A stretch of 53,996 nt of DNA from Verrucomicrobiota bacterium (GTDB lineage: Bacteria > Verrucomicrobiota > Verrucomicrobiia > Limisphaerales > UBA9464). The DNA lies in assembly GCA_026397755.1 (NCBI GenBank), contig JAPLUF010000090.1:1-53996 (forward strand), read 5' to 3'. Each line of letters begins with the position of its first letter. Position 1 is the first letter of the stretch. Of the stretch, positions 13,988 through 32,939 are shown piece by piece. Position numbers and translations under genes: made by a program. Below the pieces are notes generated by a model that searched no databases, was not told where the DNA came from, and saw only the letters and a list, made by a program, of their open reading frames with translations.

Positions 13988-14030
13988 CCGAGAAATTTAG
14001 GTTGTGATTCGGTTGGTGATTTGGGTTGGC

Positions 14031-14573: not shown

Positions 14574-14648
14574 TTCTGTAGGAACTATGGGATCTGAACT
14601 TCTAGTAAAGGGGGAGGCGCGGAACCATGGGGATCCGCGCCGACAAGA

Positions 14649-14903
14649 TCACTTCCCGTTCCAGAGGAACAAGGCGAAGAACACGATACCTTCGGCGAAG
14701 GCCGTGCTCAAGATCGCTTGGACTAGGATCTTGGTCGCGGCACCGGGATTGCGACCCACCGCTTCAGCGGCGCTTTTGCCGATCATTCCGACGCCGATGG
14801 CGGCGCCCAAGGCGGCTGCGGCGACGTGGATATTACCGGACATTTCTGCGATCATCATGGTGTTGTTTGTCTTGTTTGTCTTTGTAGTGTTGTTGCCAGC
14901 CAT
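14649..14903 (-). CDS. atpE: F1Fo ATP synthase c subunit (possible shorter start at MMIAEM, 14858)
   Basis: Two-helix hairpin: AALGAAIGVGMIGKSAAEAVGRNPGA...STAFAEGIVFFALF, with the helix-2 carboxylate (E). The N-terminal NNTTKTNKTNNT extension is unusual. Confidence 0.88.
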   Translation of the reverse strand: MAGNNTTKTNKTNNTMMIAEMSGNIHVAAAALGAAIGVGMIGKSAAEAVGRNPGAATKILVQAILSTAFAEGIVFFALFLWNGK

Positions 14904-14939
14904 CCCGGCAGTCTTGCCACCGTCTGAGGGCCGAAATTG

Positions 14940-15851
14940 TTAGTGATGAGAACCGTCCTCGGCAGGTTCCTCGTCGTGCGAACAGATGAGGAGGGTGAAG
15001 ACCGCAGTCAGCAACATGAAAACCAGAGCCTGAACCACTCCCACCAAAATCTCCATAAAGTAGAAGGGCAAGGCTGTCAGCCAACCCAGTTTTGCACCGC
15101 CCAGATGAGTCATGGCCTCCAACATGTTTTCGCCGGCAAAGACATTTCCGAAGAGACGAAAACTCAAGGATACGGGGCGGAACAAGATTGAGACCACCTC
15201 AAGAAGACCCACTGCGAAGAAGACCACCATGAGGATGAATCCCATGAAGCCGCCCAAGCCACCTTTGGCTCCAAAAAGATGCTTGAGGAAACCCACAGGC
15301 CCATTGGCCTGCAGCGCCCAGACGGTCCAAAGGATAAAGAACACCATCGCCATGGCGAAGGTCATGTTGAAATCCGCGTTAGCACCGCGTAGCAGGGGTT
15401 CCGTCACATCGAAACCGTGTTCCGTAGGATGACCATATCCGATGCTGCCAACTCCCGGCAGTAACCCAAACCAGTTGGTGGCCAAAATGAAAATGAACAA
15501 GGAGGCGAAAAACCAGAAAGTCTTATGGACCAATTCCGCTCCAATGATGCCTCCAAGGAAGTCATAAAGGCTTTCGACGAGCCACTCCCAGAAGTTCTGC
15601 GCTCCATCGGGGACGTCCTTCATGGTCCGTACCCCAAGGCGCACAGCCAAAACCAGCAACAGAGACACAATCCAAGTCAGGATCATGGAGTTGGACACTG
15701 GCAACGGTCCAATATGGAAAATGACCGGAGCCGCCGAGGGCAAGCCATGTGTCGCCGCGACCTCGGCAGGGTTTCCATGCTCTGCAGCAACGGTTGCCAA
15801 CTGAAGGCAGAGTCCGCCAAAGAGAAAAACTAAAGCTTTAGGCCAGGCCAT
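14940..15851 (-). CDS. atpB: F1Fo ATP synthase a subunit
   Basis: Polytopic membrane protein with the conserved LSFRLFGNVFAGE motif (essential Arg). The N-terminus is signal-like (MAWPKALVFLFGGLCLQLATVAA). Confidence 0.92.
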   Translation of the reverse strand: MAWPKALVFLFGGLCLQLATVAAEHGNPAEVAATHGLPSAAPVIFHIGPLPVSNSMILTWIVSLLLVLAVRLGVRTMKDVPDGAQNFWEWLVESLYDFLGGIIGAELVHKTFWFFASLFIFILATNWFGLLPGVGSIGYGHPTEHGFDVTEPLLRGANADFNMTFAMAMVFFILWTVWALQANGPVGFLKHLFGAKGGLGGFMGFILMVVFFAVGLLEVVSILFRPVSLSFRLFGNVFAGENMLEAMTHLGGAKLGWLTALPFYFMEILVGVVQALVFMLLTAVFTLLICSHDEEPAEDGSHH

Positions 15852-16071
15852 CGTAATAAATAGATAACCACCGGATCTGCTCCACGGGCACGCAGACGGC
15901 GAAGGTTCTCAACTACTGTTTGGACAGCCTAGCGAGATAGTGAAAAGTTTCACAAGCGGTTTTTGCAGATCTTTCCACCGACTCATCCCTCCATTTGAAA
16001 CCCTTCGTTGGTTTTAATCTTCATTTTGGCTCCTGGGTCCATTTGCGGGGACCGATCGTTCCGATGGGTTT

Positions 16072-16737
16072 CTATCCCCTGAGGAAAGCCCGAAGCCACA
16101 TCCAAGACTGCTCGGCTGCAAAGAAAATAACCCAGGTGACCAACGTAAAATAGATAAGCGTGACCACCAGACTCAGGAGAGCCATCAGGTACATGACGCC
16201 ATCTCGCTGAAGCCGTCCGACACACGCAAAAAAGATGACCAGTGCCGGGAGCGAGTTCTGAAGCGGAACCACCAGAAATGGGAGAGCCACCAAGAGGCCG
16301 CCCACCAGGATGAGCCAGCCAGCGCCCCTGCGCCCGACCGCATCCACCAGCCAAACCATGCGTTCGGTGCGGCTCACGCGACCGACAATCCCCAACAATC
16401 CGCACCCGAAGCCGGAAAATGCGTTCCAAGTCATCGCCCGAGGCCGGGTCGATCGGATACGCATCGGCAGCCAGACCGACTCATCACCGCGGATTAACCT
16501 CCAACCTATTCCCGCAAAGGCCAGGCCCCCGAAGGTGGCGATAGGCCCGGTGGGCAGGGGTTGAATGAATGGCAGGGTGAGGATCAGAGCCATCAACCAG
16601 GCGTTGCCCTCGCCCAGTTGATCGAGGAACTCACCGATGGTTTGCCCACCGGAGCGTGCGACCTGGGCCGAAGCACTCAAGGCACGGATGAAGTCCGCCG
16701 CGGTGGCGTTTCGGGGAGACTGAGGTGATGAGGACAT
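16072..16737 (-). CDS. ExoD-like (exopolysaccharide synthesis) membrane protein
   Basis: Start taken at MSSSPQ (16737), 20 nt downstream of the yqeY stop. Architecture: soluble N-terminus, then LMALILTLPFIQPLPTGPI... and several TM helices, as in ExoD-family proteins. The family call comes from sequence recall only. Confidence 0.5.
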   Translation of the reverse strand: MSSSPQSPRNATAADFIRALSASAQVARSGGQTIGEFLDQLGEGNAWLMALILTLPFIQPLPTGPIATFGGLAFAGIGWRLIRGDESVWLPMRIRSTRPRAMTWNAFSGFGCGLLGIVGRVSRTERMVWLVDAVGRRGAGWLILVGGLLVALPFLVVPLQNSLPALVIFFACVGRLQRDGVMYLMALLSLVVTLIYFTLVTWVIFFAAEQSWMWLRAFLRG

Positions 16738-16756
16738 CCAGCGAGGCTCTCTGACC

Positions 16757-17203
16757 TTAGGGCAGAAGCCTGGATACAAGGGCACTGACGGACTTGCCGT
16801 CGGCTCGGCCATCCACCTTGGACTGGGCGGCCTTCATGACCGCTCCCATGTCTTTCTTCGAGGTGGCTCCCACCTCGGTGATGACCTCTCGGATCAGGCT
16901 TTCCAATTCTTCGGCCGACAACGCCTTGGGCAGGTACTCGGTAAGCACTTCCAATTCGGCCTTCTCGTTGGCTGCCATTTCCGTCCGTCCAGCCTTTTCA
17001 AATTCCTCGATGGAGTCTCGGCGCTTCTTGGCCTCCCGTTGGATCATCGCCATCACATCGGCATCCGAGAGTGTCTCCGTTTTCTTTTCGATTTGGGCGT
17101 AACCCAGAGCCGCCTTGAGCATCCGGAGCGTCCCGGTTCGGACGGCTTGGCGGGCCAGCATGGAGGATTTGAGTTCGTCGTTAACGCGTTGTTGGAGGCT
17201 CAT
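16757..17203 (-). CDS. yqeY: GatB/YqeY domain protein
   Basis: MSLQQRVNDELKSSMLARQAVRTGTLRMLKAAL...MGAVMKAAQSKVDGRADGKSVSALV is the typical YqeY pattern. Confidence 0.88.
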   Translation of the reverse strand: MSLQQRVNDELKSSMLARQAVRTGTLRMLKAALGYAQIEKKTETLSDADVMAMIQREAKKRRDSIEEFEKAGRTEMAANEKAELEVLTEYLPKALSAEELESLIREVITEVGATSKKDMGAVMKAAQSKVDGRADGKSVSALVSRLLP

Positions 17204-17961
17204 GATTCGGAGGCTTGGAGTTTGCGAAGCTGATCGCGGACTTCTGCGGCGGTCTCGTAGTCCTCGATCCGGATGGCCTCGGCAAGAGCGAAGCGAAGGC
17301 GTTCGATCTCATTCTGCGGGGGCTTACGACGAATCTCGTCGAGCCATCCCCGCAAAGACAGGATTTCGCCACTTTGTTCGATGAGTTCTTCTCGTTCGTG
17401 ATCCCGGTAGAACTCAGCCAACTCGGTGATGCCGGCCTCGATGGCGATGAGGGCGGCATCCCGATCGCTCTCTTGGAGACGGGCCTCGCCGCGGGCTCGC
17501 GTGCGCATCATCGTGAGCTGAGGGGTAAATTGAACCACGCTCCATGACAGGTCGTCGGATTCAGCAAACCGGTCCACGAAGCTGAAGACTTCGAGGTTTC
17601 GGATGCAATCGCGCTCAACGGCCTCGTAGTCCTTGAGCTGGAAGAAACAAATGTATCGGTGGTGATACTGGATGGATTCCTGTTGGAGACGCCCGCATTC
17701 CTCCGACCCCAGGGCGAAATCTGGAGTCTCGCCATCGGCGCTGGTCGAGGCCTGTTCAGAACGCTTCCGGTAGAAATGGAACCAGGACTCATGACCCATG
17801 GGCTTTTTGCCATCCGGACGCCCCAGCACATTCATTTGGAGGATCCCCAGATCAACACGCAGCTGGATTTTCTCACCATCCTTGCCCTGAAAGCGGCGCG
17901 CCACCACCTGACCGGGCTTATAATCCCAGTCCTGCAGCATCTCAGTGAGGTCGAACGTCAT
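17200..17961 (-). CDS. Hypothetical protein with C-terminal UVR (UvrB/UvrC) motif
   Basis: 253 aa. The C-terminus LRFALAEAIRIEDYETAAEVRDQLRKL matches the UVR motif. There is an ATGA overlap with the yqeY start. Confidence 0.7.
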   Translation of the reverse strand: MTFDLTEMLQDWDYKPGQVVARRFQGKDGEKIQLRVDLGILQMNVLGRPDGKKPMGHESWFHFYRKRSEQASTSADGETPDFALGSEECGRLQQESIQYHHRYICFFQLKDYEAVERDCIRNLEVFSFVDRFAESDDLSWSVVQFTPQLTMMRTRARGEARLQESDRDAALIAIEAGITELAEFYRDHEREELIEQSGEILSLRGWLDEIRRKPPQNEIERLRFALAEAIRIEDYETAAEVRDQLRKLQASES

Positions 17962-21074: not shown

Positions 21075-22412
21075 TCACTTTTTGAAGAATCCCTTGGACT
21101 TAGGGGCCGGGGCCGGGGCGTCTGATTTGACCGGGACCTTTTCAAGGAATCGGTTGAGATCCATCTCGGAGACAGAATTGGTGATCAATGAGGCTTGATG
21201 GGTCTCCTTCGTTGTCAATTGAGCCAACTGAGAAGGTGCCTGGAGAATGTAGGGCGTCAGAAAAATGAGCAGTTCGGTCTTTGCATCGCTCTTGGCGCGG
21301 GTCTTGAACAAATTGCCCAGAATCGGGATGTCGCCCAAGTAGGGAACCTTCGTCTCGGTCTGGGATTGGTTATTAGAGATGAGGCCGCCGATGACGACGG
21401 TCTCTGCATGCGGAGTGACCACCACGGTGTCGGCTGAACGAATATTAATGTAGGGAGCCGAGACATTAGCCGACAAGAACTGCCGTTCAGTCGGTGAGAC
21501 TGAAGAGATTTGCGGTTGAACGATCATCTCGACTTGACCATTTGAACCAATGAACGGAGTGACGTTCAGGATGATACCCACGTCATCATAGGTAACATTG
21601 ATAATGGGGATGGTGTTGCCAGCGGAGCCTGAATAGGAAACACCGCTGGGCAGGGGAACTTTTTGACCGACCACAATGCGTGCTAATTGGCCATCGCGGG
21701 CGATGATCGACGGGCGGGATAGAACTTGCGCCTTACCAGATGTAGCCACAGCCCGGAGCGTCGCCTGAAACTCGGAGCCTGCGATGGAATAAAGGCCACC
21801 GGAACCGCCGCCGGTAGAAGACGGAGTCAGTGCCGTTCCCATCGATTGCCCCAAGCCGTTCAAGTTGGTGCTGATACTGTTCACCCCTGAAAGACCCATC
21901 ACGGTCCCACCACCGCTGCTGATGTTGTTTCCAATGTTGTTCTTGGCCCAAGCGCCTTCGACTCCGAGTTCAGAGCCGTTTTTCTTCTCAACCTCCATGA
22001 AGACCACCTTGATAAGCACCTGCGGCTTAGGTGAATCGAGATTCCGGATGACGTTGCTAATTTGCAGGGCTGTCAGGGCGTCCGCGATGACCACGAGATT
22101 GTGGGTCTGCGGATCAACCGAAATCAGGGCGCTGCCGACTCTGCCGTTGTTATTGTAGAGCCCGGAAGATCCAGTGCCTCCATTGCCACCGCCGCCTCCG
22201 CCACCAAAGCCACCACCGCCACCAAAGCCACCACCGCCTCCGAAACCACCGCCGCCGCCAAAGCCTCCGCCTCCGCCTCCGCCGCGCTGTTGGGCTATGG
22301 CGGGTAGGACCAAGGACAATCCGAGGAGCCCGACCAACACGCGGAGCGCCGGGGCCGTGGAAAGAAATCGCGAAAAGATAGAACCACTGGTTTTCATTTT
22401 GGAATCGTTCAA
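21075..22412 (-). CDS. gspD: Secretin C-terminal half: signal peptide, (FGGGGG)n tract, one N3-like domain and the secretin pore domain
   Basis: Signal-like LRVLVGLLGLSLVLPAIAQQ. N-domain motif NLVVIADALTALQISNVIRNLD..PKPQVLIKVVFMEV. Secretin core ...VPYLGDIPILGNLFKTRAKSDAKTELLIFLTPYIL. Confidence 0.85.
   Translation of the reverse strand: MNDSKMKTSGSIFSRFLSTAPALRVLVGLLGLSLVLPAIAQQRGGGGGGGFGGGGGFGGGGGFGGGGGFGGGGGGGNGGTGSSGLYNNNGRVGSALISVDPQTHNLVVIADALTALQISNVIRNLDSPKPQVLIKVVFMEVEKKNGSELGVEGAWAKNNIGNNISSGGGTVMGLSGVNSISTNLNGLGQSMGTALTPSSTGGGSGGLYSIAGSEFQATLRAVATSGKAQVLSRPSIIARDGQLARIVVGQKVPLPSGVSYSGSAGNTIPIINVTYDDVGIILNVTPFIGSNGQVEMIVQPQISSVSPTERQFLSANVSAPYINIRSADTVVVTPHAETVVIGGLISNNQSQTETKVPYLGDIPILGNLFKTRAKSDAKTELLIFLTPYILQAPSQLAQLTTKETHQASLITNSVSEMDLNRFLEKVPVKSDAPAPAPKSKGFFKK
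22179..22283. repeat. In-frame 18-nt tandem repeat encoding (FGGGGG)n in the secretin C-half
   Basis: aaagccaccaccgccacc / aaagccaccaccgcctcc / gaaaccaccgccgccgcc / aaagcctccgcctccgcc on the plus strand. Confidence 0.85.
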
Positions 22413-22423
22413 GGTTCTTAGGT

Positions 22424-23725
22424 TCAGAACAGTTGCCCGCCGGAGCGGCCACCGCCGCTATTCCCAAAGGTACCCGATCCACTGGAGGTACTGCCCGTGG
22501 TCTGGTTGTTGTTTTGCTGGCGCTGCATGAGCGCACTGTTCTGGGCGGTACCGCTGGTGCCTGTCCGGCTGCCCGATGTGCTCTGGAACATGTTCTGCAG
22601 CACCTGCGCCGCCTGCTGAGGGTCGCCGTTGTTCATACGAAACACGTGCACTTGCTGGTCCCGGGTGGAGACCACATCCAATTCGCGAACCATACCAGCG
22701 ATCTGGGTCATCAAATTCTTGGAAGCAGTTACGATCACCGAGGAAGTCCTGGAGTCGGGTACTGCCATGACCTGCGATGCACGCCGGATCCGATCGTTTT
22801 GTCCGGATGCGGAATTACCACCACCCCCGCCTCCGCCTCCGCCTCCGCCTCGTCCCCCGCCTCCGCCTCCGCCTCCGCCACCCATCATTGCCGCAAAACC
22901 TCCTGCTCCTCCAAAGGGTCCTCCACCAAACCGGACCGGTGCCTGATTGTTGTTGCCCGAACTGCTAGTGCTGGGAAACACCCCAGACAGCGCTGAGGCA
23001 ACATCGGACGGGCTGGCATGGGTCAGATGGAACACGCGAATCTCCGTCTCTGCTTCGGCGCTCGAATCAATGGCTTTGATGATCTCCACCATGTGCCGAA
23101 TATTGGCTTGGGTGTCCGTCATCACGATGGAGTTGCCGGCGGCGTTGGCCACGAAGGTCGCCTGAGGAGAAATGAAGGAAACCAGATCCTTGGCCAATTG
23201 CTCGGCCTCGACGTATCGGATCGGAATGATTTGCGTCACGATCTCATCGTTCTTCGGGATCATCCGGGGATCGTTGTTCACCTTCACCGGGATGTCCCGG
23301 GTCTTGGCCGCAGTGCGGTCGATAATGGTCAGAGTTCGACCATCCCGAATGGCGGCCAGGCCATTCTTGTTGAGTGCTGAACTCAGAAAATCCACCGCCT
23401 CGTCCTGACTCATGGGCTTGGCGCTAATCACGTTGACGGTGCCCTTAATAGGCGCGTCCAAAACGATGATGAACCCCGCCGCTTCGCTCAGGTATTCAAG
23501 AACCTGCTCCAATGGAGCATTCCTGAAATTCATCTGAATTCCCGCAGCGCTGCCGGCCGCCGAGTTCTGCTCCCGGGGCACGGGCGACGGACTCGCGGTC
23601 GTTTCCGTTCGGGTGATGGCTGGGGCATTGCTGGTGGGTGCTCCGGCATCCTGGGCTACCAGGCCGCCAGCCAAATATCCCACAGCACAGGCAGCGCCAA
23701 AGGCTCGAGTGATCAAGGTCTTCAT
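22424..23725 (-). CDS. Secretin N-terminal half: signal peptide plus N0/N1/N2-like periplasmic domains, with no pore domain
   Basis: Signal MKTLITRAFGAACAVGYLAGGLVAQD. N0-like NFRNAPLEQVLEYLSEAAGFIIVLD..VKGTVNVI. Repeats of the secretin_N pattern: IPIRYVEAEQLAKDL...NSIVMTDTQANIRHMVEIIKAID; IRVFHLTHASPSDVASAL; VMAVPDSRTSSVIVTASKNLMTQIAGMVRELD; VHVFRMNNGDPQQAAQVLQNMF. The ORF ends 11 nt before the next ORF. Confidence 0.8.
   Translation of the reverse strand: MKTLITRAFGAACAVGYLAGGLVAQDAGAPTSNAPAITRTETTASPSPVPREQNSAAGSAAGIQMNFRNAPLEQVLEYLSEAAGFIIVLDAPIKGTVNVISAKPMSQDEAVDFLSSALNKNGLAAIRDGRTLTIIDRTAAKTRDIPVKVNNDPRMIPKNDEIVTQIIPIRYVEAEQLAKDLVSFISPQATFVANAAGNSIVMTDTQANIRHMVEIIKAIDSSAEAETEIRVFHLTHASPSDVASALSGVFPSTSSSGNNNQAPVRFGGGPFGGAGGFAAMMGGGGGGGGGGRGGGGGGGGGGGNSASGQNDRIRRASQVMAVPDSRTSSVIVTASKNLMTQIAGMVRELDVVSTRDQQVHVFRMNNGDPQQAAQVLQNMFQSTSGSRTGTSGTAQNSALMQRQQNNNQTTGSTSSGSGTFGNSGGGRSGGQLF
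22815..22935. repeat. cgcctc-type hexamer run encoding a poly-Gly tract in the secretin N-half
   Basis: ccgcctccgcctccgcctccgcctcgtcccccgcctccgcctccgcctccgcc. The protein reads FGGGPFGGAGGF..GGGGGGGGGGRGGGGGGGGGGG. Confidence 0.85.
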
Positions 23726-24336
23726 TTCATCTCCTGTTCCCGTTTTTTCAAAAGCCGCTTCAAAATTTCATCGGATCCTGGGGGATCCTCGCTCGGAGTC
23801 GTCGGCGACGCGGCCGCTGTTCCGGTCGCTCCCTCGGCTGAGCCCACTCGCTTGAACCCATCTCCGCCGGTGCCGGACAACAATTGCCAAGCGCCCTCCG
23901 AATCTTGACGGAGACGTTGACCCACCTTCAGCAAAACTGGAGGGCGATTGGACCCCAACAAGGTGACCGACTGGGGAGAAACGAGGCTCAGGGTCTGACC
24001 GGCGATGATCGCGTTCACCTGGAGGGTCTTGCGAAGGTCCACGGTGTTTCCGTCAAAGAAGGCAAAGGTGCCTCTCGGATAGGTTATGACTCCCACGAGT
24101 CCAAACTCAGGGGCATCAGACGAGGCCACCGCCTTCGGCTTGGGCGCCGGTCGAGATTCACCCCGGATCTTGGGCTGCCTTTCTGGATCGAAAATATTTC
24201 GATCGCCCACCCGACGCGCCACCTCCTTGGAGTCGATCACCGACGTCGGATGAGTCTCGGCTGCGAAACCCAGCAAGGACCCAAACAGGACCCCGGCCGT
24301 TAGGGAGCCAATCCAAATTGAGGGAGGAACCTTCAT
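23722..24336 (-). CDS. GspC/PilP-like membrane-anchored periplasmic protein
   Basis: An N-terminal TM helix, an NIFDP motif, then a beta-rich segment GLVGVITYPRGTFAFFDG...IIAGQTLSLVSPQSVTLL resembling the GspC HR/PilP fold pattern. ATGA overlaps on both sides. Confidence 0.5.
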   Translation of the reverse strand: MKVPPSIWIGSLTAGVLFGSLLGFAAETHPTSVIDSKEVARRVGDRNIFDPERQPKIRGESRPAPKPKAVASSDAPEFGLVGVITYPRGTFAFFDGNTVDLRKTLQVNAIIAGQTLSLVSPQSVTLLGSNRPPVLLKVGQRLRQDSEGAWQLLSGTGGDGFKRVGSAEGATGTAAASPTTPSEDPPGSDEILKRLLKKREQEMK

Positions 24337-24869
24337 GGCTTAGACGAGGGATTGAGCACGAGGCCGTTGATTTGGAGGCTGAGAGTCAACTGACGACCGG
24401 CCGGATCGCGGCTCATCATCTGAAGGCTATCGACCTTGACGGCCAACGGACCCTCTTCAATCCGCTGGAGAAACTGAGTCAAACTGGCGAGAGACCCGGA
24501 AGTCTCGAGGCGACACCGCAACAGTTGGTAGGCGGCTTCGTCGCCCTTCCACTGCGGCATTCGATCCACGATTTGAGCCCCGGACGCCTTGGCCCATTCG
24601 TCGCAGGCCCTCAGCAGACGTTGCTCGGCCTGGGACGGTTCATGGGGCAGGGCATTGGTGCGCAAGTGATTCCACTGATCCCGAAGTCCTCCCTCGCGCT
24701 GGATCAACGCCCGTCCCTCGCTCACCTGACGCCGCAAGGTGGCGATGCGTGCTGAGCGCTCCGACCAAACTCGGCCCATCGGCGTGATGAACACGAGGTC
24801 GGCGATGTAGAGACCCACAGCGGCCAGGGTCACGATCATGAGCAGACGTTGACGTTGGGTGGGATTCAT
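24333..24869 (-). CDS. GspM/PilO-like assembly platform protein
   Basis: Start at MNPTQRQR (24869; ATGA overlap with the upstream stop). A single TM helix (LLMIVTLAAVGLYIADLVF), a coiled segment and a ferredoxin-like C-terminal region. Confidence 0.55.
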   Translation of the reverse strand: MNPTQRQRLLMIVTLAAVGLYIADLVFITPMGRVWSERSARIATLRRQVSEGRALIQREGGLRDQWNHLRTNALPHEPSQAEQRLLRACDEWAKASGAQIVDRMPQWKGDEAAYQLLRCRLETSGSLASLTQFLQRIEEGPLAVKVDSLQMMSRDPAGRQLTLSLQINGLVLNPSSKP

Positions 24870-26308
24870 CGGGCCATGCCTCCATTCCACACGAAGGTGA
24901 GGTTGAACTGCATCGGAGAAGCGCCGCGGGATTGGTCGTGGTGAACCTTGAGGACTCCGGGCAAGGCGCTCAGACGGGCCGTCATCGCCAAAAAGGCCGG
25001 ACTATCGGTGGCCGTGCCACTGCAGACCACCTCGCCTGATTCTCGAATTTCGATGACCTTGGCGGTCACCGATCCGTTCTCGGGGAAGGCGCTCGTCAGA
25101 ACCTCCAAAATAGCTAAGCCCCGGGCCGACTGAGGCGTCCACGGTCGGAATTGTCGCAAATCTTGCTGGATGCGTTCCAGCTCCCTGACCTTGCTTGAGA
25201 GACCCGCCCAACGAGATTCCAAGAGCGAGAGTTGGATTTGCTGAATCAGGAAAGCCAGAGCCACCAGGACAGCCACGCCGCCGGCGACCGTCCAGACCGT
25301 GCGTCGCTGCCCTTGGGCGTGACGGGCCAGGAATTGTTGGAGCACCGATGGCTTGGGCGGCAGGAACTCGAGGGTCGCCGGCCGCGAGGCCAGCACCCGG
25401 GCTGCGACCACCGCTGAAATTGGGAGCTCTTGAGACGAGGCCAACCCGGGCACTTCGGCGGTCTGGGGGCGGATGCGGAAACCGGCCACCGACAATCGCG
25501 TGGACAGCTCAGCGGCCAGCGTTTGGGCCAGGTCTTGGGGGCCAAAGATGCGAACATCGCGAATGGAGCCATTCCAAGGATCTGGGAGCTGCCCCAACGT
25601 AATCCGAATCTCCCGTGCGATGCTGTCGGCATGTAAAAGCGGTTGGCCAGTCGGGTCTTCGGTGACGCCTTCGAAGGAACGCAAGGCCACCAGACCGCCT
25701 CCAGCGCTCAATTGGAGTGTCACCGGACCCGGCCCGGATCCGAGGTGCAACGCGAGGACCCCCTCCGAGGCAGGATTTTCAGGAGGCTGGAGCTCGCACA
25801 GGGTCGCAGAAACGCTCACCAATTTGAGGCGCGCAGAACGCGTCCAACGTTCCAAAGAGGCCAAACGAGATTGCGTCAATGCGGCTAAGGTCACCCATTG
25901 ACTACCCTCACCCCGGACACACCGCGAGTGGGCCACCTGATGGGTCGAGGCGTCGCCGTGAAAACCCTTCTCCGCCTCCAGTTGCAACAAGCTGTGTGCA
26001 TCGGCATCGGCCAAGACTGGAATTTCAGTCTGGGTGACCAGCAGGCTAGAAACCGACAGGGCCACCGCACAGGTGCGTTCCCGAATACCAGCCTGATCTA
26101 GCTGAGCCCGTAGCTCCTTGCCGACGGTTTCTGGATCACCCGAATCAATGTCCAGAGACAGTTCGGCCTGAAATCCGAACGTTTTCTCAATCCCGTTCTG
26201 GGTCCGGCGCAGGAGGCTGCCCTCAATGCGACGGCCCTCCCACGAAAGCCCCAGAACGGAGGGCGGGGCTTTGCGCGGACGGGAACCCAGTTTCAGAAAA
26301 TTCATCAT
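24866..26308 (-). CDS. GspL-like protein (PilM-like cytoplasmic domain, TM helix, PilN-like periplasmic domain)
   Basis: 480 aa. The N-terminal roughly 300 aa has the PilM/GspL actin-like pattern (VLGLSWEGRRIEGSLL...AVALSVSSLLVTQTEIP), followed by TM VWTVAGGVAVLVALAFLIQQI and a periplasmic tail. Confidence 0.6.
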   Translation of the reverse strand: MMNFLKLGSRPRKAPPSVLGLSWEGRRIEGSLLRRTQNGIEKTFGFQAELSLDIDSGDPETVGKELRAQLDQAGIRERTCAVALSVSSLLVTQTEIPVLADADAHSLLQLEAEKGFHGDASTHQVAHSRCVRGEGSQWVTLAALTQSRLASLERWTRSARLKLVSVSATLCELQPPENPASEGVLALHLGSGPGPVTLQLSAGGGLVALRSFEGVTEDPTGQPLLHADSIAREIRITLGQLPDPWNGSIRDVRIFGPQDLAQTLAAELSTRLSVAGFRIRPQTAEVPGLASSQELPISAVVAARVLASRPATLEFLPPKPSVLQQFLARHAQGQRRTVWTVAGGVAVLVALAFLIQQIQLSLLESRWAGLSSKVRELERIQQDLRQFRPWTPQSARGLAILEVLTSAFPENGSVTAKVIEIRESGEVVCSGTATDSPAFLAMTARLSALPGVLKVHHDQSRGASPMQFNLTFVWNGGMAR

Positions 26309-26328
26309 GGGGTGGTCTGGGCCTTCAT

Positions 26329-27759
26329 CTAGCGATCGATTTGCTGGGCGATCTGCTCACGGACACGGTCGCCCAATGCCCAGCCCAATCGGCTGAGATC
26401 CTGACGGTAGAGGATCTTCGGGACTCCATCACTGATATCAAAAATGAACTTCACTCGGCGATAACCTCGGCCCAAGGGCCCTACTGCCACCAGATCGGCT
26501 CCATATTGGAAGCTCCGGGTCGTAAGGAGATCGCGGCCAGCCAAAGTGGTTACGGCCTGATGATCACGACCGAGTGCGGCCACCATCCAAGCGATGGAAT
26601 TCAGGCTCGTCGTATTTTGTTCCCGATACCGAACGAGTGTCGAGGCGGCGCCCTCTGCGGCTTCTTGAGCCAAGCCCGCCCCGACAAAGAGCGCGGTGAG
26701 GACCGTGGCGTTGGCCGTATTTAGGTTCACCCGCCCATAGCTGTAGGTATTGGTGGTGACGCAAAGTTCCGGGGCGATGCGTTCGAAGTCATCTTGGCTT
26801 AGGCCGCTGGTTAGATAAAAACGCAGTAAGCTCGGGAAATTGGGCGTCGCGGCCGCGGCTCCTCCCCCGCCTCCACCCCCGGGTCCCCCGCCCTGGGTGA
26901 AGCCCAAGCGAGTGAGAATTTCGCGGCTACGGCCGGTGCCGAAGGACGATTCGAGCAATCCCTGGATTTGGGCTTGGGTGTTGACGTTGGTGAGGAGGGT
27001 TCCATCGGCATGGAAATTGGGCTCCCGACTGAAGACGGTGGTCGTATCCAATAGGCCCGGAGTCGAATACAAGGATCCAGTGAGGCTGCGTTCGTCCGGG
27101 TCGAGAATCCCGTTCTGGTTGCGATCGTCCCCAAAGAGGTGATCTAAGGTAATGCCCTGGACCCAGCGCAATTCATCGACCGTTTCAAACGGACTCCGCT
27201 TGGCTTCATAGCCCAAACTCGAATAACCCAACTGCAAGGTCCCGTTGGTGCTCCTCCAATCTACGATGGCGGCTGCCAACTCGGTGGTCATCCCGGGCAA
27301 CATCGAGAGAGCATTGGAATTGGCCCGGTTGAGATTGAGCCTTCCCGACTCGTCCTGAAGGTTGAAAACCAACTGGTTGAGCCCGGATTCTGCGGCGGCC
27401 GGATTGCGGCCCAAAATCCAGACCTGAGATTCTCCGATAGGCAATGCCTGGCAAACAAACTGGGAATTGGTGGTCATCATCCCGTTTGTGGCGAACTGTG
27501 CCAAGGCCCACCCAACATAGCGCGCTGCGCCCTCGATGGCCTGACCGGCCGCCAGGTCGGCCGCTCGATTAGCCGAAGCCCGCAACTCCAAACTCATGGA
27601 GGCTGCAAAATAGAGAACCAGCGCGGTCAGTCCCGCCGTGATCCACAGCACGACCACCAAGACCGACGCCCGGGACCCGGTGCGAAGATCCATCTGGAGC
27701 TTGGGCCGGCCTAGGATCGCCCGCGTCCTCATTTTCTGGCTCAGGGTTTGAAGTACCAT
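26329..27759 (-). CDS. gspK: T2SS minor pseudopilin GspK
   Basis: N-terminal hydrophobic SVLVVVLWITAGLTALVLY without Glu5, and two helix-hairpin-helix-like motifs: LNLNRANSNALSMLPGMTTELAAAIVDWR and VNLNTANATVLTAL. Confidence 0.8.
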   Translation of the reverse strand: MVLQTLSQKMRTRAILGRPKLQMDLRTGSRASVLVVVLWITAGLTALVLYFAASMSLELRASANRAADLAAGQAIEGAARYVGWALAQFATNGMMTTNSQFVCQALPIGESQVWILGRNPAAAESGLNQLVFNLQDESGRLNLNRANSNALSMLPGMTTELAAAIVDWRSTNGTLQLGYSSLGYEAKRSPFETVDELRWVQGITLDHLFGDDRNQNGILDPDERSLTGSLYSTPGLLDTTTVFSREPNFHADGTLLTNVNTQAQIQGLLESSFGTGRSREILTRLGFTQGGGPGGGGGGGAAAATPNFPSLLRFYLTSGLSQDDFERIAPELCVTTNTYSYGRVNLNTANATVLTALFVGAGLAQEAAEGAASTLVRYREQNTTSLNSIAWMVAALGRDHQAVTTLAGRDLLTTRSFQYGADLVAVGPLGRGYRRVKFIFDISDGVPKILYRQDLSRLGWALGDRVREQIAQQIDR

Positions 27760-27761
27760 GC

Positions 27762-28466
27762 TTAGCCTCCGACGGTGCTGGTGGAGTTGGTGCGTGTCTG
27801 GGCGCTCACGGGCACCAATAATTCAACGCGTCCCGGGTCGGGACCCCAAGAAATCCCACGCTGAAGACGAATGCGGACGGCCACCGGAAGGTTGGTGGTG
27901 GTGCCAAAGACATCGGTGGTGTCCCATTGCGCGAGCCACTGAATGCCGTCGAAGGATTCCACATCCAGACGCGCCACATCGCGCAAGAGGAGTTGGTCCT
28001 CCACTTCGGCCACGGAGATGGCTAGAAGATTTCGGCACACGCCGCGATAAAGGTCCATCGAGGCCGATCCTCCTTCGACCGAATTCCGGAGACTGTAGGA
28101 AACGCGTTGAACCGCGCCCCAGGGCTCTGAAGCCCGCAGCGAACCGGTGGTTGTATTGAACTCGAGCGAAACGGGCTGGGCATTGACGGTACTGGACAGA
28201 GTACCGGCGCGGAAGGAGCCCGAAATGAGTCCGTTGGTCTTAGGGGTCACCGCACCCTGGATGTCTTGGCGCAGGGAATCGAGCGCCAGCTCCAGCGGGG
28301 CCGCCGATTCGATCGCATCAGAAACCGTGTTGCGGAGCCGAAGACTCGTGAAGAGGACCTGGTTAGCGACGATGAGGATGAGAGCCGCCGCACCGATCGA
28401 GAGGATTAATTCGATCAACGTGAACACCGATGGGTTCCTGCTTCCGGATGAAACTCGGGGGATCAT
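27762..28466 (-). CDS. Minor pseudopilin (GspJ-like by position)
   Basis: Start at MIPRVSS (28466; ATGA overlap with the upstream stop). Prepilin-type N-terminus SVFTLIELILSIGAAALILIV. Confidence 0.65.
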   Translation of the reverse strand: MIPRVSSGSRNPSVFTLIELILSIGAAALILIVANQVLFTSLRLRNTVSDAIESAAPLELALDSLRQDIQGAVTPKTNGLISGSFRAGTLSSTVNAQPVSLEFNTTTGSLRASEPWGAVQRVSYSLRNSVEGGSASMDLYRGVCRNLLAISVAEVEDQLLLRDVARLDVESFDGIQWLAQWDTTDVFGTTTNLPVAVRIRLQRGISWGPDPGRVELLVPVSAQTRTNSTSTVGG

Positions 28467-28885
28467 CGGATGGCGGTACTGCTGCCGCTGCCAGGGAGCG
28501 CATCGACGGGGTGACCCAGCGTGGAAAACCGGACCGAGGACTCCTGTCCCTGGGTCAAAAAGCGGACCTCGGCCGTCAATAGCGGCAGGCTGCTTTGCAC
28601 CCAGTTCTCGCGGGTCACCGTCCACCGGTAGTCCACCGTTCCCTCGACCTGAGTCCCGCTTTGCGTGGCACTGCTATTGGTGTAGAGGGTCGCCTCGGTG
28701 AGCATCCGTTCAGCAATGCGGGCGGCCACAGCCCGCCGAATAGACGCAGTGCCGGCTCGGCTCGCCACATGCAGGGCCTCGACCACGGCTGGGATAACGA
28801 TGGCCAAAAAGAGCAGAGCCGCCAGCGTCTCCGCCAGGGTATATCCCGCTCGCCGACGGTTATTGGAGACCGGTACGAATTTCAT
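28463..28885 (-). CDS. Minor pseudopilin (GspI-like by position)
   Basis: MKFVPVSNNRRRAG|YTLAETLAALLFLAIVIPAVV: a class III signal with Glu5. The start overlaps the upstream gene by 26 nt. Confidence 0.65.
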   Translation of the reverse strand: MKFVPVSNNRRRAGYTLAETLAALLFLAIVIPAVVEALHVASRAGTASIRRAVAARIAERMLTEATLYTNSSATQSGTQVEGTVDYRWTVTRENWVQSSLPLLTAEVRFLTQGQESSVRFSTLGHPVDALPGSGSSTAIR

Positions 28886-29462
28886 AATGACGGCGGTCAG
28901 ACCCTTCGACGAGCCACAGCACGGACCCATCCGAGTCCTCGATGCGGATGGCGTTGGGACTGTCCTCATCGATGGTCCCATCCGGCAGGAGCCGGATCGA
29001 CGGTTCGGTCCGGGCGGTGGTGGGTTTTTGAGAACTGGAAATTCCGGGCAGCAGACCCGTGGTGCGGGTACTCGTCAACGTCTGGCCGATAAGGCGCTGG
29101 GCCTTATCAAAGGTAATCCGGAGATGGTCATCGACGGTGAATTCTTGGGACAACGGGTCACCATTTTGCCCCCGAGTCTCGCGCTCGACTCCATAGCGAC
29201 CCTCGTTGGCATCGAGCCACAGTAGGACGGGCATGCTCTCAGAAATAGCCCGACTCCGGGCCGCATGCGTCAGGGCCAGAACCCGACGGGCCTCGGACTC
29301 CAAGGCTCGTCCGCGGATGAATCCCGACAGGCGCGGAGACACCATCGAGACAGCGACAACCAACAACGCCATCACCAGGATCATTTCGATCAAGGTGAAG
29401 CCGTGCCGCCGCGAATTCTTCGGGCAGTGACTCTTATTTGGCCGTCCAGTTGCCAAAGTCAT
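28860..29462 (-). CDS. Minor pseudopilin (GspH-like)
   Basis: ...NSRRHG|FTLIEMILVMALLVVAVSMVSPRLSGFIRGRALESEARRV resembles GspH/FimT. The start overlaps gspG by 29 nt. Confidence 0.7.
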   Translation of the reverse strand: MTLATGRPNKSHCPKNSRRHGFTLIEMILVMALLVVAVSMVSPRLSGFIRGRALESEARRVLALTHAARSRAISESMPVLLWLDANEGRYGVERETRGQNGDPLSQEFTVDDHLRITFDKAQRLIGQTLTSTRTTGLLPGISSSQKPTTARTEPSIRLLPDGTIDEDSPNAIRIEDSDGSVLWLVEGSDRRHYEIRTGLQ

Positions 29463-29889
29463 CCTCGGTTCCCGCCTTGCCGTCCGGCCCGATGGAGGAC
29501 AGGTCGAAGGAGGTGGCATTTTGTCGTCCCGGTTGAGCGTACAGATATTCGATGCCCCAGGGATCCTGAGGGATTTTGTCGAGGTACGGTCCGCGCCAGT
29601 TACGGGCCTGCCGTGGCGCCTGGAGGAGGTCAGCCAAGGTCTTGGGGTAGGAGCCATTGTCTACCTCGTAGGCGTCCAAGGCTATCTTGATCGAGGCGAT
29701 GTCGGCTCGTGCTGCCGACTGTCGGGCCTGTTCGCTGCGACCCATCATCTTGGGGACCACGAGGGCGGCCAAAATACCGATGATGGTGATGACTAACAGC
29801 ATCTCGACCAGCGTGAAACCACGGTGGCGACGACGTGTCTTGCCGGCGAGGGCTCCTGCCTGGGGACGAAGGGAGAGGTTCAGGTTCAT
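29434..29889 (-). CDS. gspG: T2SS major pseudopilin GspG
   Basis: RG|FTLVEMLLVITIIGILAALVVPK..ARQSAARADIASIKIALDAYEVDNGSYP...PYLDKIPQDPWG..Y...PG....FDLSSIGPDGKAGTEDD is the GspG signature. Confidence 0.92.
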   Translation of the reverse strand: MNLNLSLRPQAGALAGKTRRRHRGFTLVEMLLVITIIGILAALVVPKMMGRSEQARQSAARADIASIKIALDAYEVDNGSYPKTLADLLQAPRQARNWRGPYLDKIPQDPWGIEYLYAQPGRQNATSFDLSSIGPDGKAGTEDDFGNWTAK

Positions 29890-29903
29890 GAGGTCAGAAG
29901 GAA

Positions 29904-31163
29904 TTACTTGATGTAGTCTTGCAGCGAGAAAATCGGAAGCAGCATACCGATAAAGATGAAGCCGATAAAACCAGCGATCAGAAAGAGCATCAGCGGCTCG
30001 GCCAAGGCCACCGCAGTTTTAAGACGTCGGTCTAATTCACTCTCCGTGACGTTGGCGATGCGGATGAGTTCGACATCCAGTCGCCCACTCTCTTCCGCCA
30101 CCGAGATCATCTCCATCACGGACCCGCTGAAGAGGGTGGGACACTCCGCCAAACTCTGGCCGAGACGTCCGCCCTGCTGCACCTGGTCGATCGAACGAGC
30201 CACAGCATCGACCAGGATTTGGTTACCGATCGAACGACGCGCCACATTTAGTGCCTGAACCAATTGGACATCCGCCCCAATTAAGGTCCCCAGCATTCGG
30301 CAAAAACGCGCCATAGCAAATCGGGCACTGAGCGGACCCACGACCGGTGCCTTCAACGTCAGCCCTTCCCAAATGCGCCGGCCCGCCGGCGAGACGATCC
30401 AGGTTCTCAAAAAGAAACTCCCGAGCACCAACCCGACCAACACCAACAGACCGTAAGAACGTAGGATGTCGCTGGTGGCGATAATAATTTGGGTGATGAG
30501 GGGCAAGCCGCCCTTCACGCTGGCGAAGACTTTCTGGAATTTAGGAATGAAAAAGACCAGCAGCACACTCAGCACCACCGCGGCCATCAGCAGCAGAACC
30601 GCTGGGTAGATCATTGCCGTGAGCACCTTGGATCGGAGCTCCTTTTCTCGGGACTGGAAGTCAGCGATTTGCGCGAGGACAACGTCAAGAAATCCGCCGG
30701 CCTCACCGGCCTCGACCATCGCCGTGTAAACCTTCGGGAACGTTTCTGGGGATCGGGCCATGGCAGTGGCCAGGGACATACCATCCACCACCAGTCCGTG
30801 GATTTCTCGCCACTTCGCCGAGGCCACCGGCGACGAAGCCTCCTTACCGAGGATGGTCAGCGCCCGACTCAAAGGAACCCCTGCTGCGAGAAGGCTGGAG
30901 AGCAGCCGAGTGAAATTCTCTAATTCCTCCGAGCTCACCTTGGAACCACCAAAAGACAACCCGCCCAGACCCTGGATTCCATTGGCCGAATCCTTGCCAG
31001 GTTTGACGGTTCGATTTCCGCTGCCACCGGCTTCGGTGACGCTGACGGGACGCAAGCCTCGCGCTTCGATGACCCGCAAGGCTTCGGGACGGGTAGCCGC
31101 TTCGGCGGTGCCATCGGCCATCTGCCCATCGGCTTGGAGTGCTCGGTAGGTGAAGGTGGGCAT
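29904..31163 (-). CDS. gspF: T2SS inner-membrane platform protein GspF
   Basis: 419 aa with duplicated GspF domains and three TM segments; motifs such as LSSLLAAGVPLSRAL and MISVAEESGRLD. Confidence 0.92.
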   Translation of the reverse strand: MPTFTYRALQADGQMADGTAEAATRPEALRVIEARGLRPVSVTEAGGSGNRTVKPGKDSANGIQGLGGLSFGGSKVSSEELENFTRLLSSLLAAGVPLSRALTILGKEASSPVASAKWREIHGLVVDGMSLATAMARSPETFPKVYTAMVEAGEAGGFLDVVLAQIADFQSREKELRSKVLTAMIYPAVLLLMAAVVLSVLLVFFIPKFQKVFASVKGGLPLITQIIIATSDILRSYGLLVLVGLVLGSFFLRTWIVSPAGRRIWEGLTLKAPVVGPLSARFAMARFCRMLGTLIGADVQLVQALNVARRSIGNQILVDAVARSIDQVQQGGRLGQSLAECPTLFSGSVMEMISVAEESGRLDVELIRIANVTESELDRRLKTAVALAEPLMLFLIAGFIGFIFIGMLLPIFSLQDYIK

Positions 31164-31166
31164 GGG

Positions 31167-32939
31167 TCAGGTGCGTGAACCCGATGCCCCAGAACCACGG
31201 GTCTGGTCGGTGGCTTCGCCCGAATCGGCCGGTGCCTGAAATCGCGATGTTTCCTTGTCGGTCGTGACGCTCAGGACCTCTTCTACGGTGGTGATACCCT
31301 GAGCCACCAAGCGCCAACCGTCCTCGGCCAATGTTCGCATGCCGGAAGTTCGGGCTGCCGAACGAATTTGGTCGGTAGAGCCATTTTCCAGAATCAGCCG
31401 ACGGATATTCTCATCGGTGTCCATCCATTCGAAGATGGCATGGCGTCCGAAGAATCCAGTTTGCCGGCATTCGCGACATCCGACGGCCTTGAAGAGTTCA
31501 ACCTCTGGAGCAATGCCCATGCGGGATCGGAAGGATTTCGCATGAGCCGAGGTGTCGGGAACCTTGCAATGAGGACACAAGACTCGAACCAACCGCTGGG
31601 CTAGAACGGCTTCGAGAGACGACGCCACGAGGTACGGCTCGACCCCCATATCTACCAGGCGAGTCAGAGCGCCAGGGGCGTCATTGGTGTGCAGAGTGGA
31701 GAAAACCAAATGCCCGGTCAGTGAGGCCTGCACCGCGATTTGCGCTGTCTCCCGATCTCGGATTTCACCGATGAGCACGACATCCGGATCGTGGCGGAGA
31801 ATGGACCTCAACCCACGAGCGAAGGTGAGTCCGGCCTTCTCCGAAACCTGGATCTGGTTCACGCCCCGGAGCTGATACTCAACGGGGTCCTCGATCGTGA
31901 TGATCTTGCGGACCTCGTCGTTGATCTCGTTGAGGGCCGTGTAAAGAGTCGAGGTCTTGCCGCTGCCGGTCGGGCCTGTCACCAGCACTATGCCGTGCGG
32001 CAAATTCAGCACCTTCCGAAAATGCTCCAACTCGCGGTCTCCAAGACCGATATGGGACAGGCCCCGCAAGGTCGAGTTCTGTCGCAGAAGACGCATGACA
32101 ACCGCCTCGCCATGAAGCATCGGAATTACCGAGACACGAATGTCTACCTCGGTGTCTTCGATCCGAACCTTGATACGCCCATCCTGAGGCAAGCGCTTCT
32201 CCGCGATGTTGAGATGGCTGAGGATTTTGACGCGCGAAACGATGGCCGGTTGGAACTGCTTGAGCTGAGCCGGGAGCGGAATTTCCTGCAACTCACCATC
32301 GATGCGGTACCGAATGCGGAACTCGTGCTCGAAGGGTTCTAGATGGATGTCGGAGGCGCGCAGTTCAATGGCATCCTTAAGGACTTGGTTGACGAAGCGA
32401 ATGATCGACGCTTCATCCTCGGCTCCGGCGTCGAGGTTGGAATCCTCGGTGTTTTCATCGACGACCTGGACCGATTTCTCCTCGTCGAGTGCGCCGATGG
32501 TGTCGGCTCCGACTCCGAGGTTTTTCTTCATCTCCCGCAGGAGCGCCTCCCGCGGCGACAAAACTAATTTGAGACGGAGGCCTGTCAGGGAGCGGAGTGT
32601 GTCCAGCCCGCGCGTCGCAAAAAGACGGCAACTGGCGATCTCGATGGAACCGTTGTCGCGGCGCAGCGGCAGCAATTCTTCCTTCAGAAGAATGCGAGCC
32701 GGGAAGAGCGCCAGCACCTCGCGATCGGCCTCGACCGAATCCAAGGGGAGAAACCCCACCCCATATTCGTGGCACAGCCATTCCAGGACATCCCGCTCGG
32801 TGGCATCCTCACCACCCGCGGTTGAAGATCCTGTGAGCAACCGGGCCTGAACAAACGCCAACGCATCGGCGGCAGAGAGTTGCCGCTCGGCGATCATCCG
32901 ATCGAGGAGCGTTTGGGTGGGTGTCGAGGCTTCGGCCAT
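31167..32939 (-). CDS. gspE: T2SS/T4P-family secretion ATPase GspE
   Basis: An N-terminal MshEN/T2SSE_N-like domain, Walker A GPTGSGKT, Asp box, Walker B VVLIGEIRD, His box and a tetracysteine motif (CPHC...CRECRQTG). Confidence 0.95.
   Translation of the reverse strand: MAEASTPTQTLLDRMIAERQLSAADALAFVQARLLTGSSTAGGEDATERDVLEWLCHEYGVGFLPLDSVEADREVLALFPARILLKEELLPLRRDNGSIEIASCRLFATRGLDTLRSLTGLRLKLVLSPREALLREMKKNLGVGADTIGALDEEKSVQVVDENTEDSNLDAGAEDEASIIRFVNQVLKDAIELRASDIHLEPFEHEFRIRYRIDGELQEIPLPAQLKQFQPAIVSRVKILSHLNIAEKRLPQDGRIKVRIEDTEVDIRVSVIPMLHGEAVVMRLLRQNSTLRGLSHIGLGDRELEHFRKVLNLPHGIVLVTGPTGSGKTSTLYTALNEINDEVRKIITIEDPVEYQLRGVNQIQVSEKAGLTFARGLRSILRHDPDVVLIGEIRDRETAQIAVQASLTGHLVFSTLHTNDAPGALTRLVDMGVEPYLVASSLEAVLAQRLVRVLCPHCKVPDTSAHAKSFRSRMGIAPEVELFKAVGCRECRQTGFFGRHAIFEWMDTDENIRRLILENGSTDQIRSAARTSGMRTLAEDGWRLVAQGITTVEEVLSVTTDKETSRFQAPADSGEATDQTRGSGASGSRT

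Follow-up and report, generated by a model that had tools for sequence, protein, structure and literature searches.

A type II secretion secretin encoded by two genes, divided within its N3 domain across a verrucomicrobial clade

Secretins are a model for giant gated outer-membrane channels, and the structural and assembly work on them all assumes a single chain. In a 53,996-nt stretch of DNA from a Verrucomicrobiota bacterium (contig JAPLUF010000090.1; this whole stretch is hereafter the window), we found the secretin GspD of a type II secretion system (T2SS) encoded by two genes in different reading frames, here called gspD-N and gspD-C after the N- and C-terminal halves of the protein. A sequence-only reading of this DNA had proposed a secretin made as two separately exported polypeptides from two open reading frames (ORFs). 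Both ORFs lie on the minus strand where that reading had placed them, and conservation, domain matches and signal-peptide patterns support the proposal. Newly established here, from sequence comparison, are the position of the split inside the N3 domain, its clade-wide occurrence and its apparent derivation from a fused GspD of the type found in the Planctomycetes-Verrucomicrobia-Chlamydiae (PVC) group, with a long N3 loop. We consider it probable that the two genes encode a genuine two-chain GspD, which arose by an ancient fission in the N3 loop and whose halves rebuild N3.

Pfam profiles placed GspD N0 (6.3e-15, 55 bits) and three stretches of Secretin_N (5.5e-26) on the gspD-N product and found no Secretin pore domain there. 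The earlier description of this chain as a signal peptide (by sequence pattern) followed by N0 and Secretin_N repeats, with the pore absent, therefore holds. The gspD-C product carries the pore domain (Secretin, PF00263; 5.3e-47, 160 bits) together with a partial Secretin_N match that covers only profile positions 25-69 of 69, and Pfam found no BON or pil_N domain in either half. The profile matches agree with the domains named in the sequence-only reading for Secretin, Secretin_N and GspD N0, the last two being significant in the upstream ORF; STN was not significant (E = 0.015). Two of its assignments had to be narrowed. Of the secretin_N-like repeats in the N-half, counted there as at least three, N1 and N2 are complete and what remains is the first half of N3; in the C-half the secretin core stands, and the N3-like domain is the second half of N3 only. 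The GspD profile TIGR02517, whose equivalog cut-off is 351.35 bits, aligned to the N-half over positions 1-296 of 600 (193.3 bits) and to the C-half over positions 283-600 (249.3 bits), and neither half alone reaches the cut-off. NCBI names several half-secretins (P0004, P0057, P0077 and P0082) "hypothetical protein" because each half scores below this value. Annotation can therefore easily miss part of the T2SS content of Verrucomicrobiota, a group of abundant polysaccharide degraders in freshwater and soil.

By profile alignment, the gene break falls within N3, between alpha1 and beta2, which is a new observation. The last 84 residues of the N-half match only positions 1-26 of the Secretin_N profile (17.4 bits), and the mature N-terminus of the C-half matches only positions 25-69 (14.8 bits); scored separately, both fragments lie under the Pfam gathering threshold of 28.2 bits. 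A chimera of the N-half tail and the C-half N-terminus matches the whole profile (positions 1-69) with 34.6 bits (E = 2.2e-8) and passes the threshold, and N1 and N2, taken as controls, are complete domains. Because the two N3 matches complement each other, the N-half can be laid out as signal peptide, N0, N1, N2, N3 beta1-alpha1 and tail, and the C-half as signal peptide, linker, N3 beta2-beta3-alpha2 and pore. Residues ~82-124 of the C-half (numbered from the ATG) align to the second half of N3 in the PDB sequences of XcpQ and Escherichia coli GspD, and a Gly-rich insertion occupies the equivalent alpha1-beta2 position in N2 and in N3. The boundary between N2 and N3 (LDVVSTRDQQVHVF) and that between N3 and the pore (LDSPKPQVLIKVVF) have a motif in common that is pronounced enough to misguide MAFFT.

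Around the break, two details of the sequence-only reading changed. It had set long poly-Gly tracts close to the breakpoint in both halves. The tract of the N-half is in fact the N2 loop (aa 252-317), ~115 residues before the C-terminus, and the tail beside the break is Ser/Thr/Gln/Gly-rich. In the C-half the linker has, family-wide, a median length of 36 aa with 48% Gly and 10% Phe, and in 105 of 113 homologues it contains two or more G[FYW]G motifs. The second detail was a gap of 11 nt before gspD-C. This figure is right for the mechanical TTG start at 22412 (445 aa), five codons upstream of an ATG at 22397 that we take as the conserved start because homologues begin there; from the ATG the gap is 26 nt, and the junction reads ...GGQLF-TGA-(26 nt)-ATG-MKTSGS....

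Two constructs were modelled with AlphaFold2 (AF2). The first was a single chain of 490 aa in which N-half residues 349-433 were joined to the mature C-half, modelled from an unpaired alignment. Here the N3 beta1 and alpha1 contributed by the N-half (strand 358-362, helix 369-381) had a predicted local distance difference test (pLDDT) of ~86 and the beta2, beta3 and alpha2 of the C-half ~88, with ~100 disordered residues between the N3 fragments (pLDDT 30-45). In Foldseek, the top matches of this model were PulD, GspD and XcpQ at template-modelling (TM) scores of ~0.3, which confirms the secretin family only; the scores are low because a single subunit of an oligomeric barrel was modelled, long disordered loops included. 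The second construct was a minimal N3 chimera of 99 aa whose N-half part had no alignment depth. It folded as beta-alpha-beta-beta-alpha with a pLDDT of ~78-80 in its structured parts, and the beta1 of the N-half formed a strand for which only the C-half strands were available as sheet partners. The top 34 PDB matches of the chimera were all secretin N-domains. The best, GspD 5zdh, superposed with a root-mean-square deviation of 1.6 A over 83 columns (TMq 0.59), a length that calls for both N3 fragments. The AF2 models fit complementation of N3 in trans, as support and not as proof.

One genome per GTDB species was scanned. A relative was present in 563 species, and the locus counts given here refer to the best 80 loci (48-96% identity), whose labels are nearly always Verrucomicrobiota, Limisphaerales, Verrucomicrobiales or "subdivision 3". 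The relatives are not fused: in 80 of 80, down to 48% identity, one stop-bounded ORF encodes the N part and a separate one the C part. This comparison shows the split gspD to be conserved across a large verrucomicrobial clade comprising Limisphaerales, Verrucomicrobiales and relatives. The 120 best matches to the C-half are ~395-445 aa long (57-89% identity), those to the N-half are ~420-450 aa long and carry N0 and Secretin_N without the pore, and long contigs at 57-60% identity keep the order gspF-G-H-I-J-K-...-D_N-D_C. Both genes are under purifying selection, with omega against four close relatives of 0.06-0.11 for gspD-N and 0.08-0.11 for gspD-C. By segment, omega was ~0 for N3 beta1-alpha1, 0.06-0.16 for beta2-beta3-alpha2 and 0.07-0.23 for the N-half tail, in which the motif QNSALMQRxQNN is conserved across loci and the C-terminal residue is F or Y in 57 of 80. 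One could imagine that an ordinary single gspD only looks split, through a sequencing or assembly error or a recent mutation that turned it into a pseudogene, since Gly-rich low-complexity DNA near the junction is error-prone and the window probably comes from a metagenome-assembled genome (MAG). This explanation is refuted, and we give it practically no probability: the same architecture recurs in hundreds of database proteins and at 80 independent loci that come from numerous studies and assemblers, the junction and spacer sequence is nearly identical in four independent MAGs of close relatives (L004, L005, L009 and L012), purifying selection on both genes is strong, and the start codon and signal peptide are conserved.

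Signal peptides were judged by a heuristic sequence pattern, for gspD-C on 113 full-length homologues (among P0001-P0120). The C-half starts with MKTSGSIFSR, a hydrophobic core and AIA/QQR (the slash marks the predicted cleavage site), and the N-half with MKTLITRAFGAACAVGYLAGGLVA/QD, a pattern conserved among N-half homologues. The Sec-type pattern is present in all 113 C-half homologues, so by this heuristic the second ORF does have the signal peptide of its own that had been claimed for it. The n-region is net positive in 112 of them, position -1 is Ala in 107 and Gly in 6, position -3 is small or aliphatic, QQR follows as a conserved motif, and the median Kyte-Doolittle hydrophobicity of the core is 2.73 over 10 residues. 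Omega in the signal peptides was 0.35-0.8 (0.35-0.40 in the C-half), as expected for such segments. A Cys occurs in 55 of the 113 C-half signal peptides, in 44 of them exactly 7 residues before the cleavage site (C-A-A-x-E-x-H-A/QQR). A lipoprotein-type secretin was considered for the C-half and rejected for this locus, as a strict lipobox is found in 1 of 113 and the signal peptide encoded here has no Cys.

The halves are offset by 0, +1 and +2 frames in 25, 28 and 27 of the 80 loci, and the spacers between them, mostly 10-54 nt, vary in length and sequence. Such evenly spread offsets and variable spacers exclude a conserved frameshift or readthrough; with the split in all 80 loci and selection on both genes, they bear out the earlier statement that this is not a simple frameshift of one gene. 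Programmed frameshifting or stop-codon readthrough could in principle yield one fused GspD, the internal "signal peptide" then being a hydrophobic loop segment, and the 26 nt between the ORFs and the 25 loci with both parts in the same frame and a stop between them would suit such a scheme. We nevertheless regard it as extremely improbable. No single recoding mechanism could be conserved over this range of offsets and spacers, cleavable signal-peptide features follow the ATG in 113 of 113 homologues, and a hydrophobic stretch of 20 residues, placed midway through a periplasmic domain, would serve as a stop-transfer anchor.

The C-half was searched exhaustively with phmmer against 1.84 billion representative proteins, and the best 150 representatives were considered. 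The closest ~25 representative clusters (at least 44% identity) are short forms; full-length secretins (809-855 aa) do not come up until identity has fallen to 38-43%. The nearest fused GspDs (P0263, P0270, P0271, P0279 and P0321) belong to Planctomycetota (Phycisphaerae/Tepidisphaeraceae), in a family that is uniformly fused (760-1350 aa) and whose named members are Phycisphaerae. They share with the split pair the operon slot and the Gly-rich N2 loop, and their N0-N1-N2(Gly loop)-N3-pore layout is that of the two halves combined; unlike the split pair, they are one chain with no internal stop, start or signal peptide. Exactly at the position of the break, between N3 alpha1 and beta2, they carry a low-complexity Gly/Ser/Thr/Phe loop of 100-120 aa. 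The gene of one of them, P0263 on locus L086, closes a syntenic T2SS operon. The simplest history, judging from these comparisons, would be that, in an ancestor of this verrucomicrobial clade, gspD was split inside the disordered N3 loop and acquired a stop, a start and a signal peptide. No equivalent of the QNSALMQR motif or of the C-terminal Phe was seen in the loop of the fused relatives, and the tail motif and the C-terminal Phe/Tyr were probably acquired after the fission.

Some further observations concern these relatives. The L086 contig has a T2SSF gene of 130 aa and T2SSK and G6PD each in two pieces, which suggests indel errors in a long-read assembly; gspD is intact there at 845 aa. 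The fused Phycisphaerae proteins fall into two size classes, ~800 aa and ~1050-1350 aa (P0423, P0424, P0410, P0413, P0437 and P0464), and some of the larger ones carry PF02983 and PF14611. Among the best 150 representatives there are also giant proteins of 1.8-4.7 thousand residues with a secretin domain at the extreme C-terminus (P0326, P0371, P0368, P0365, P0375, P0385, P0389, P0384, P0381, P0350 and P0291); in P0326 (4695 aa) the match lies at 4299-4609.

In known T2SSs, N0-N2 docks GspC and the inner-membrane platform. For the two-chain GspD that we favour, both chains would be exported separately by Sec and their signal peptides removed. In the periplasm, beta1-alpha1 of the N-half would complete the half-domain of the C-half by fragment complementation and so restore a normal ring-building N3, leaving the N0-N2 module that docks the inner-membrane platform tied non-covalently to the outer-membrane pore. 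The stoichiometry would presumably be 1:1 in a roughly 15-mer, and features of the N-half tail (the QNSALMQR motif and the C-terminal Phe) may strengthen docking. The arrangement might bring a benefit, in that targeting and assembly of the smaller pore half would not depend on the periplasmic half. Intact peptidoglycan is impassable to assembled secretin multimers, a problem that different secretins solve differently (PMC10329019), and N3 forms a constriction in the secretin channel (PMC9251779); for these reasons the split has a plausible functional rationale.

Several points weigh against this reading. A benefit in targeting or in crossing the peptidoglycan is speculative, we infer the physical complex of the two halves from models and the signal-peptide cleavage from motifs, and a second full-length secretin may be encoded elsewhere in the genome (none other lies within the window). 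The quality of the AF2 models is moderate, with predicted TM (pTM) scores of 0.45 for the 490-aa and 0.52 for the 99-aa construct, and both are artificial single chains without true N/C pairing and without an inter-chain coevolution signal. Covariation was measured as mutual information with average product correction between the N-half N3 fragment and all variable C-half columns, over 64 non-redundant genuine N/C pairs. No enrichment between the N3 fragments was detected (6 of the top 40 pairs against 4.6 expected, p = 0.3) in a test whose power is low, the sample being small and phylogenetically structured; the N2 control gave a similar picture.

The main competing explanation, which we judge unlikely, accepts the split and holds that N3 is not rebuilt. 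The C-half would then be a minimal stand-alone secretin and the N-half an independent periplasmic adaptor, like the RhcC1 linker or partners of the GspC/PilP type, which uses other surfaces or acts separately, with its beta1-alpha1 as a remnant. The undetected covariation between the fragments agrees with this, as does the existence of secretins without N0-N2 (pIV and RcpA-type architectures occur among the PDB matches); the derived tail motifs of the N-half (QNSALMQR and the C-terminal Phe) could mediate another docking mode, and stoichiometric accessory proteins sit near N3 elsewhere, as in the 17:17 BfpB-BfpG complex (PMC12531336). Yet no part of the junction is better conserved than this supposed remnant (omega ~0), which every locus examined retains, and the C-half alone would expose an incomplete half-domain of two strands and one helix. 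AF2 packs both fragments into a canonical N-domain, and joining them restores the full-length Pfam match.

A more elaborate form of N3 complementation, as an adaptive "snap-on" secretin with an FG-type mesh barrier, seems to us improbable when taken as a whole. The pore half would be exported, cross the peptidoglycan and assemble in the outer membrane alone, and the N0-N2 half would be recruited later through N3 complementation, making the coupling of the pore to the T2SS platform reversible or regulated. In addition, the ~165 Gly/Phe-rich disordered residues per protomer (in the N2 loop, the N-half tail and the C-half linker) would extend into the vestibule on the periplasmic side, level with the N3 constriction, where ~15 protomers might form a cohesive FG-type mesh, an extra permeability barrier like that of FG-nucleoporins, in a PVC bacterium.

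Among known systems, the canonical T2SS secretins GspD, PulD and XcpQ (TIGR02517; 5wq7, 5wq8, 6hcg and 5wln) are the closest sequence and fold matches. They have the same set and order of domains and the same slot as last gene of a gspE-F-G-H-(I)-J-K-...-M operon, whereas the split pair has two polypeptides with two signal peptides, an N3 bisected between alpha1 and beta2, and long Gly/Phe-rich loops in N2 and at the break. A "split secretin gene" of functional significance unknown has been described as a hallmark of the rhizobial-type type III secretion system (T3SS), namely rhcC1/nolW and rhcC2 (PMC3574062, PMC3973906), and Abby and Rocha explained it by partial homologous gene replacement, with RhcC1 the remnant N-terminus and RhcC2 a Tad-type secretin (PMC3459982). 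On pNGR234a we found that NolW has N0 and one Secretin_N, that RhcC2 has pil_N, BON and Secretin, and that 11.6 kb separate the two genes, which lie on opposite strands. The resemblance is that the N-terminal part and the pore part come from separate genes. The Rhc pair is, however, of mixed origin (the remnant of a T3SS secretin with a complete Tad/CpaC-like secretin) and has no bisected domain; the genes described here are adjacent on one strand in a T2SS operon, are cut inside a domain, and cover contiguous stretches of a single GspD profile and likewise of the fused GspD relatives. The sequence-only reading had called a two-component secretin an unusual channel design; this is fair for the T2SS fission type, but a two-gene secretin as such was already known from RhcC1/RhcC2 (PMC3459982). 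A second periplasmic partner, as proposed here, also occurs in accessory complexes (BfpB-BfpG, pilotins, PilQ-TsaP and GspC HR-N0), and in BfpB-BfpG this partner attaches to the secretin ring close to the N-domains at a stoichiometry of 17:17 (PMC12531336). In these complexes the secretin is complete and the partner unrelated, whereas in the split pair the C-half would be partnered by the N-terminal half of the same secretin, at an interface proposed to lie inside a single domain. A split, fissioned or two-gene T2SS GspD was not found in the literature searched, from which most subscription journals were outside.

A secretin naturally cut at N3 in hundreds of species indicates that the N0-N2 module need not be covalently attached, and the N3 break points to a permissive split site that may serve for engineering two-part secretins. 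The pair is a ready-made system for asking which half serves targeting, multimerisation, peptidoglycan crossing and inner-membrane coupling. It is also a clean case of a gene split within a folded domain: a signal peptide was gained in a low-complexity loop, and the fused ancestral state survives in a sister phylum. For a secretion-system specialist the split secretin should be moderately to highly surprising, and it is experimentally tractable.

The coordinates of the two genes, their parts and the operon are collected in Table 1. Matches to T2SSE, T2SSF, T2SSG, GspH, T2SSJ, T2SSK and T2SSM_b lie directly upstream of the split secretin, and L001 and L002 share this operon order, as does L086, where gspD is fused. 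No promoter-like site was found between gspD-N and gspD-C, where terminator-like matches are at chance level, and the two genes are apparently co-transcribed.

Table 1. Positions of the split gspD, its domains and the upstream T2SS genes in the window (aa, amino acids of the respective chain; C-half numbered from the ATG)
Feature	Position	Strand	Basis or remark
gspD-N (N-terminal half of split secretin)	22424..23725	-	433 aa + stop; Pfam N0 + Secretin_N
N-half signal peptide, aa 1-24, MKTLITRAFGAACAVGYLAGGLVA/QD	23654..23725	-	sequence pattern, heuristic
N0 domain, aa 65-129	23339..23533	-	PF21305 type_II_gspD_N0, 6.3e-15; aligns to GspD N0 in 5wq7/5wq8
N1, aa 164-222, complete Secretin_N	23060..23236	-	PF03958 1-66/69, 46.5 bits scanned alone
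N2, aa 229-351, complete Secretin_N	22673..23041	-	PF03958 2-66/69, 44.3 bits across loop
N2 Gly-rich loop, ~65 aa, aa 252-317	22775-22972	-	interrupts N2
N3 fragment a, beta1-alpha1, aa 356-381, QQVHVFRMNNGDPQQAAQVLQNMFQ	22583..22660	-	PF03958 1-26/69, 17.4 bits
N-half Ser/Thr/Gln/Gly-rich C-terminal tail, aa 382-433, ending ...GGQLF	22427..22582	-	AF2 pLDDT <50
Conserved tail motif QNSALMQRQQNN, aa 395-406	22508-22543	-	conservation across loci
26-nt spacer, gspD-N stop to gspD-C ATG	22398..22423	-	sequence
gspD-C (C-terminal half)	21075..22397	-	440 aa + stop from conserved ATG; PF00263 5.3e-47
C-half signal peptide, aa 1-35, ...LSLVLPAIA/QQR	22293..22397	-	pattern in 113/113 full-length homologues
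Gly/Phe-rich disordered linker, aa 36-85, GGGGGF repeats then YNNNG	22143..22292	-	AF2 pLDDT 30-45
N3 fragment b, beta2-beta3-alpha2, aa 86-121, RVGSALISVDPQTHNLVVIADALTALQISNVIRNLD	22035..22142	-	PF03958 25-69/69, 14.8 bits
Secretin pore domain, aa 217-385	21243..21749	-	PF00263 2-168/169, 160 bits
Upstream T2SS operon	23722..32939	-	Pfam matches
gspE	31167-32939	-	Pfam
gspF	29904-31163	-	Pfam
gspG	29434-29889	-	Pfam
gspH-like gene	between gspG and gspJ in operon listing	-	Pfam
gspJ	27762-28625	-	Pfam
gspK	26329-27759	-	Pfam
Unannotated 480-aa gene	24866-26308	-	GspL-like slot, no Pfam match
gspM/PilO-like gene	24333-24890	-	Pfam
Unannotated 204-aa gene	23722-24336	-	no Pfam match

The stop of the 204-aa gene overlaps the start of gspD-N (ATGA). 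Its product, which gave no Pfam or PDB sequence match, has an N-terminal transmembrane segment, a Pro-rich region and a beta-rich C-terminus; as a guess, it is a candidate GspC/PilP-like partner of N0. Unannotated genes fill the slots of the 204-aa and 480-aa genes in L001 and L002 too. Downstream of the T2SS operon of L001, at 13807-17233, lie a WXG100-family gene and a gene for a 1304-aa FtsK/SpoIIIE (EssC-like) ATPase, a pair that resembles a type VII secretion-like module, in Verrucomicrobiota an unexpected phylum for one.

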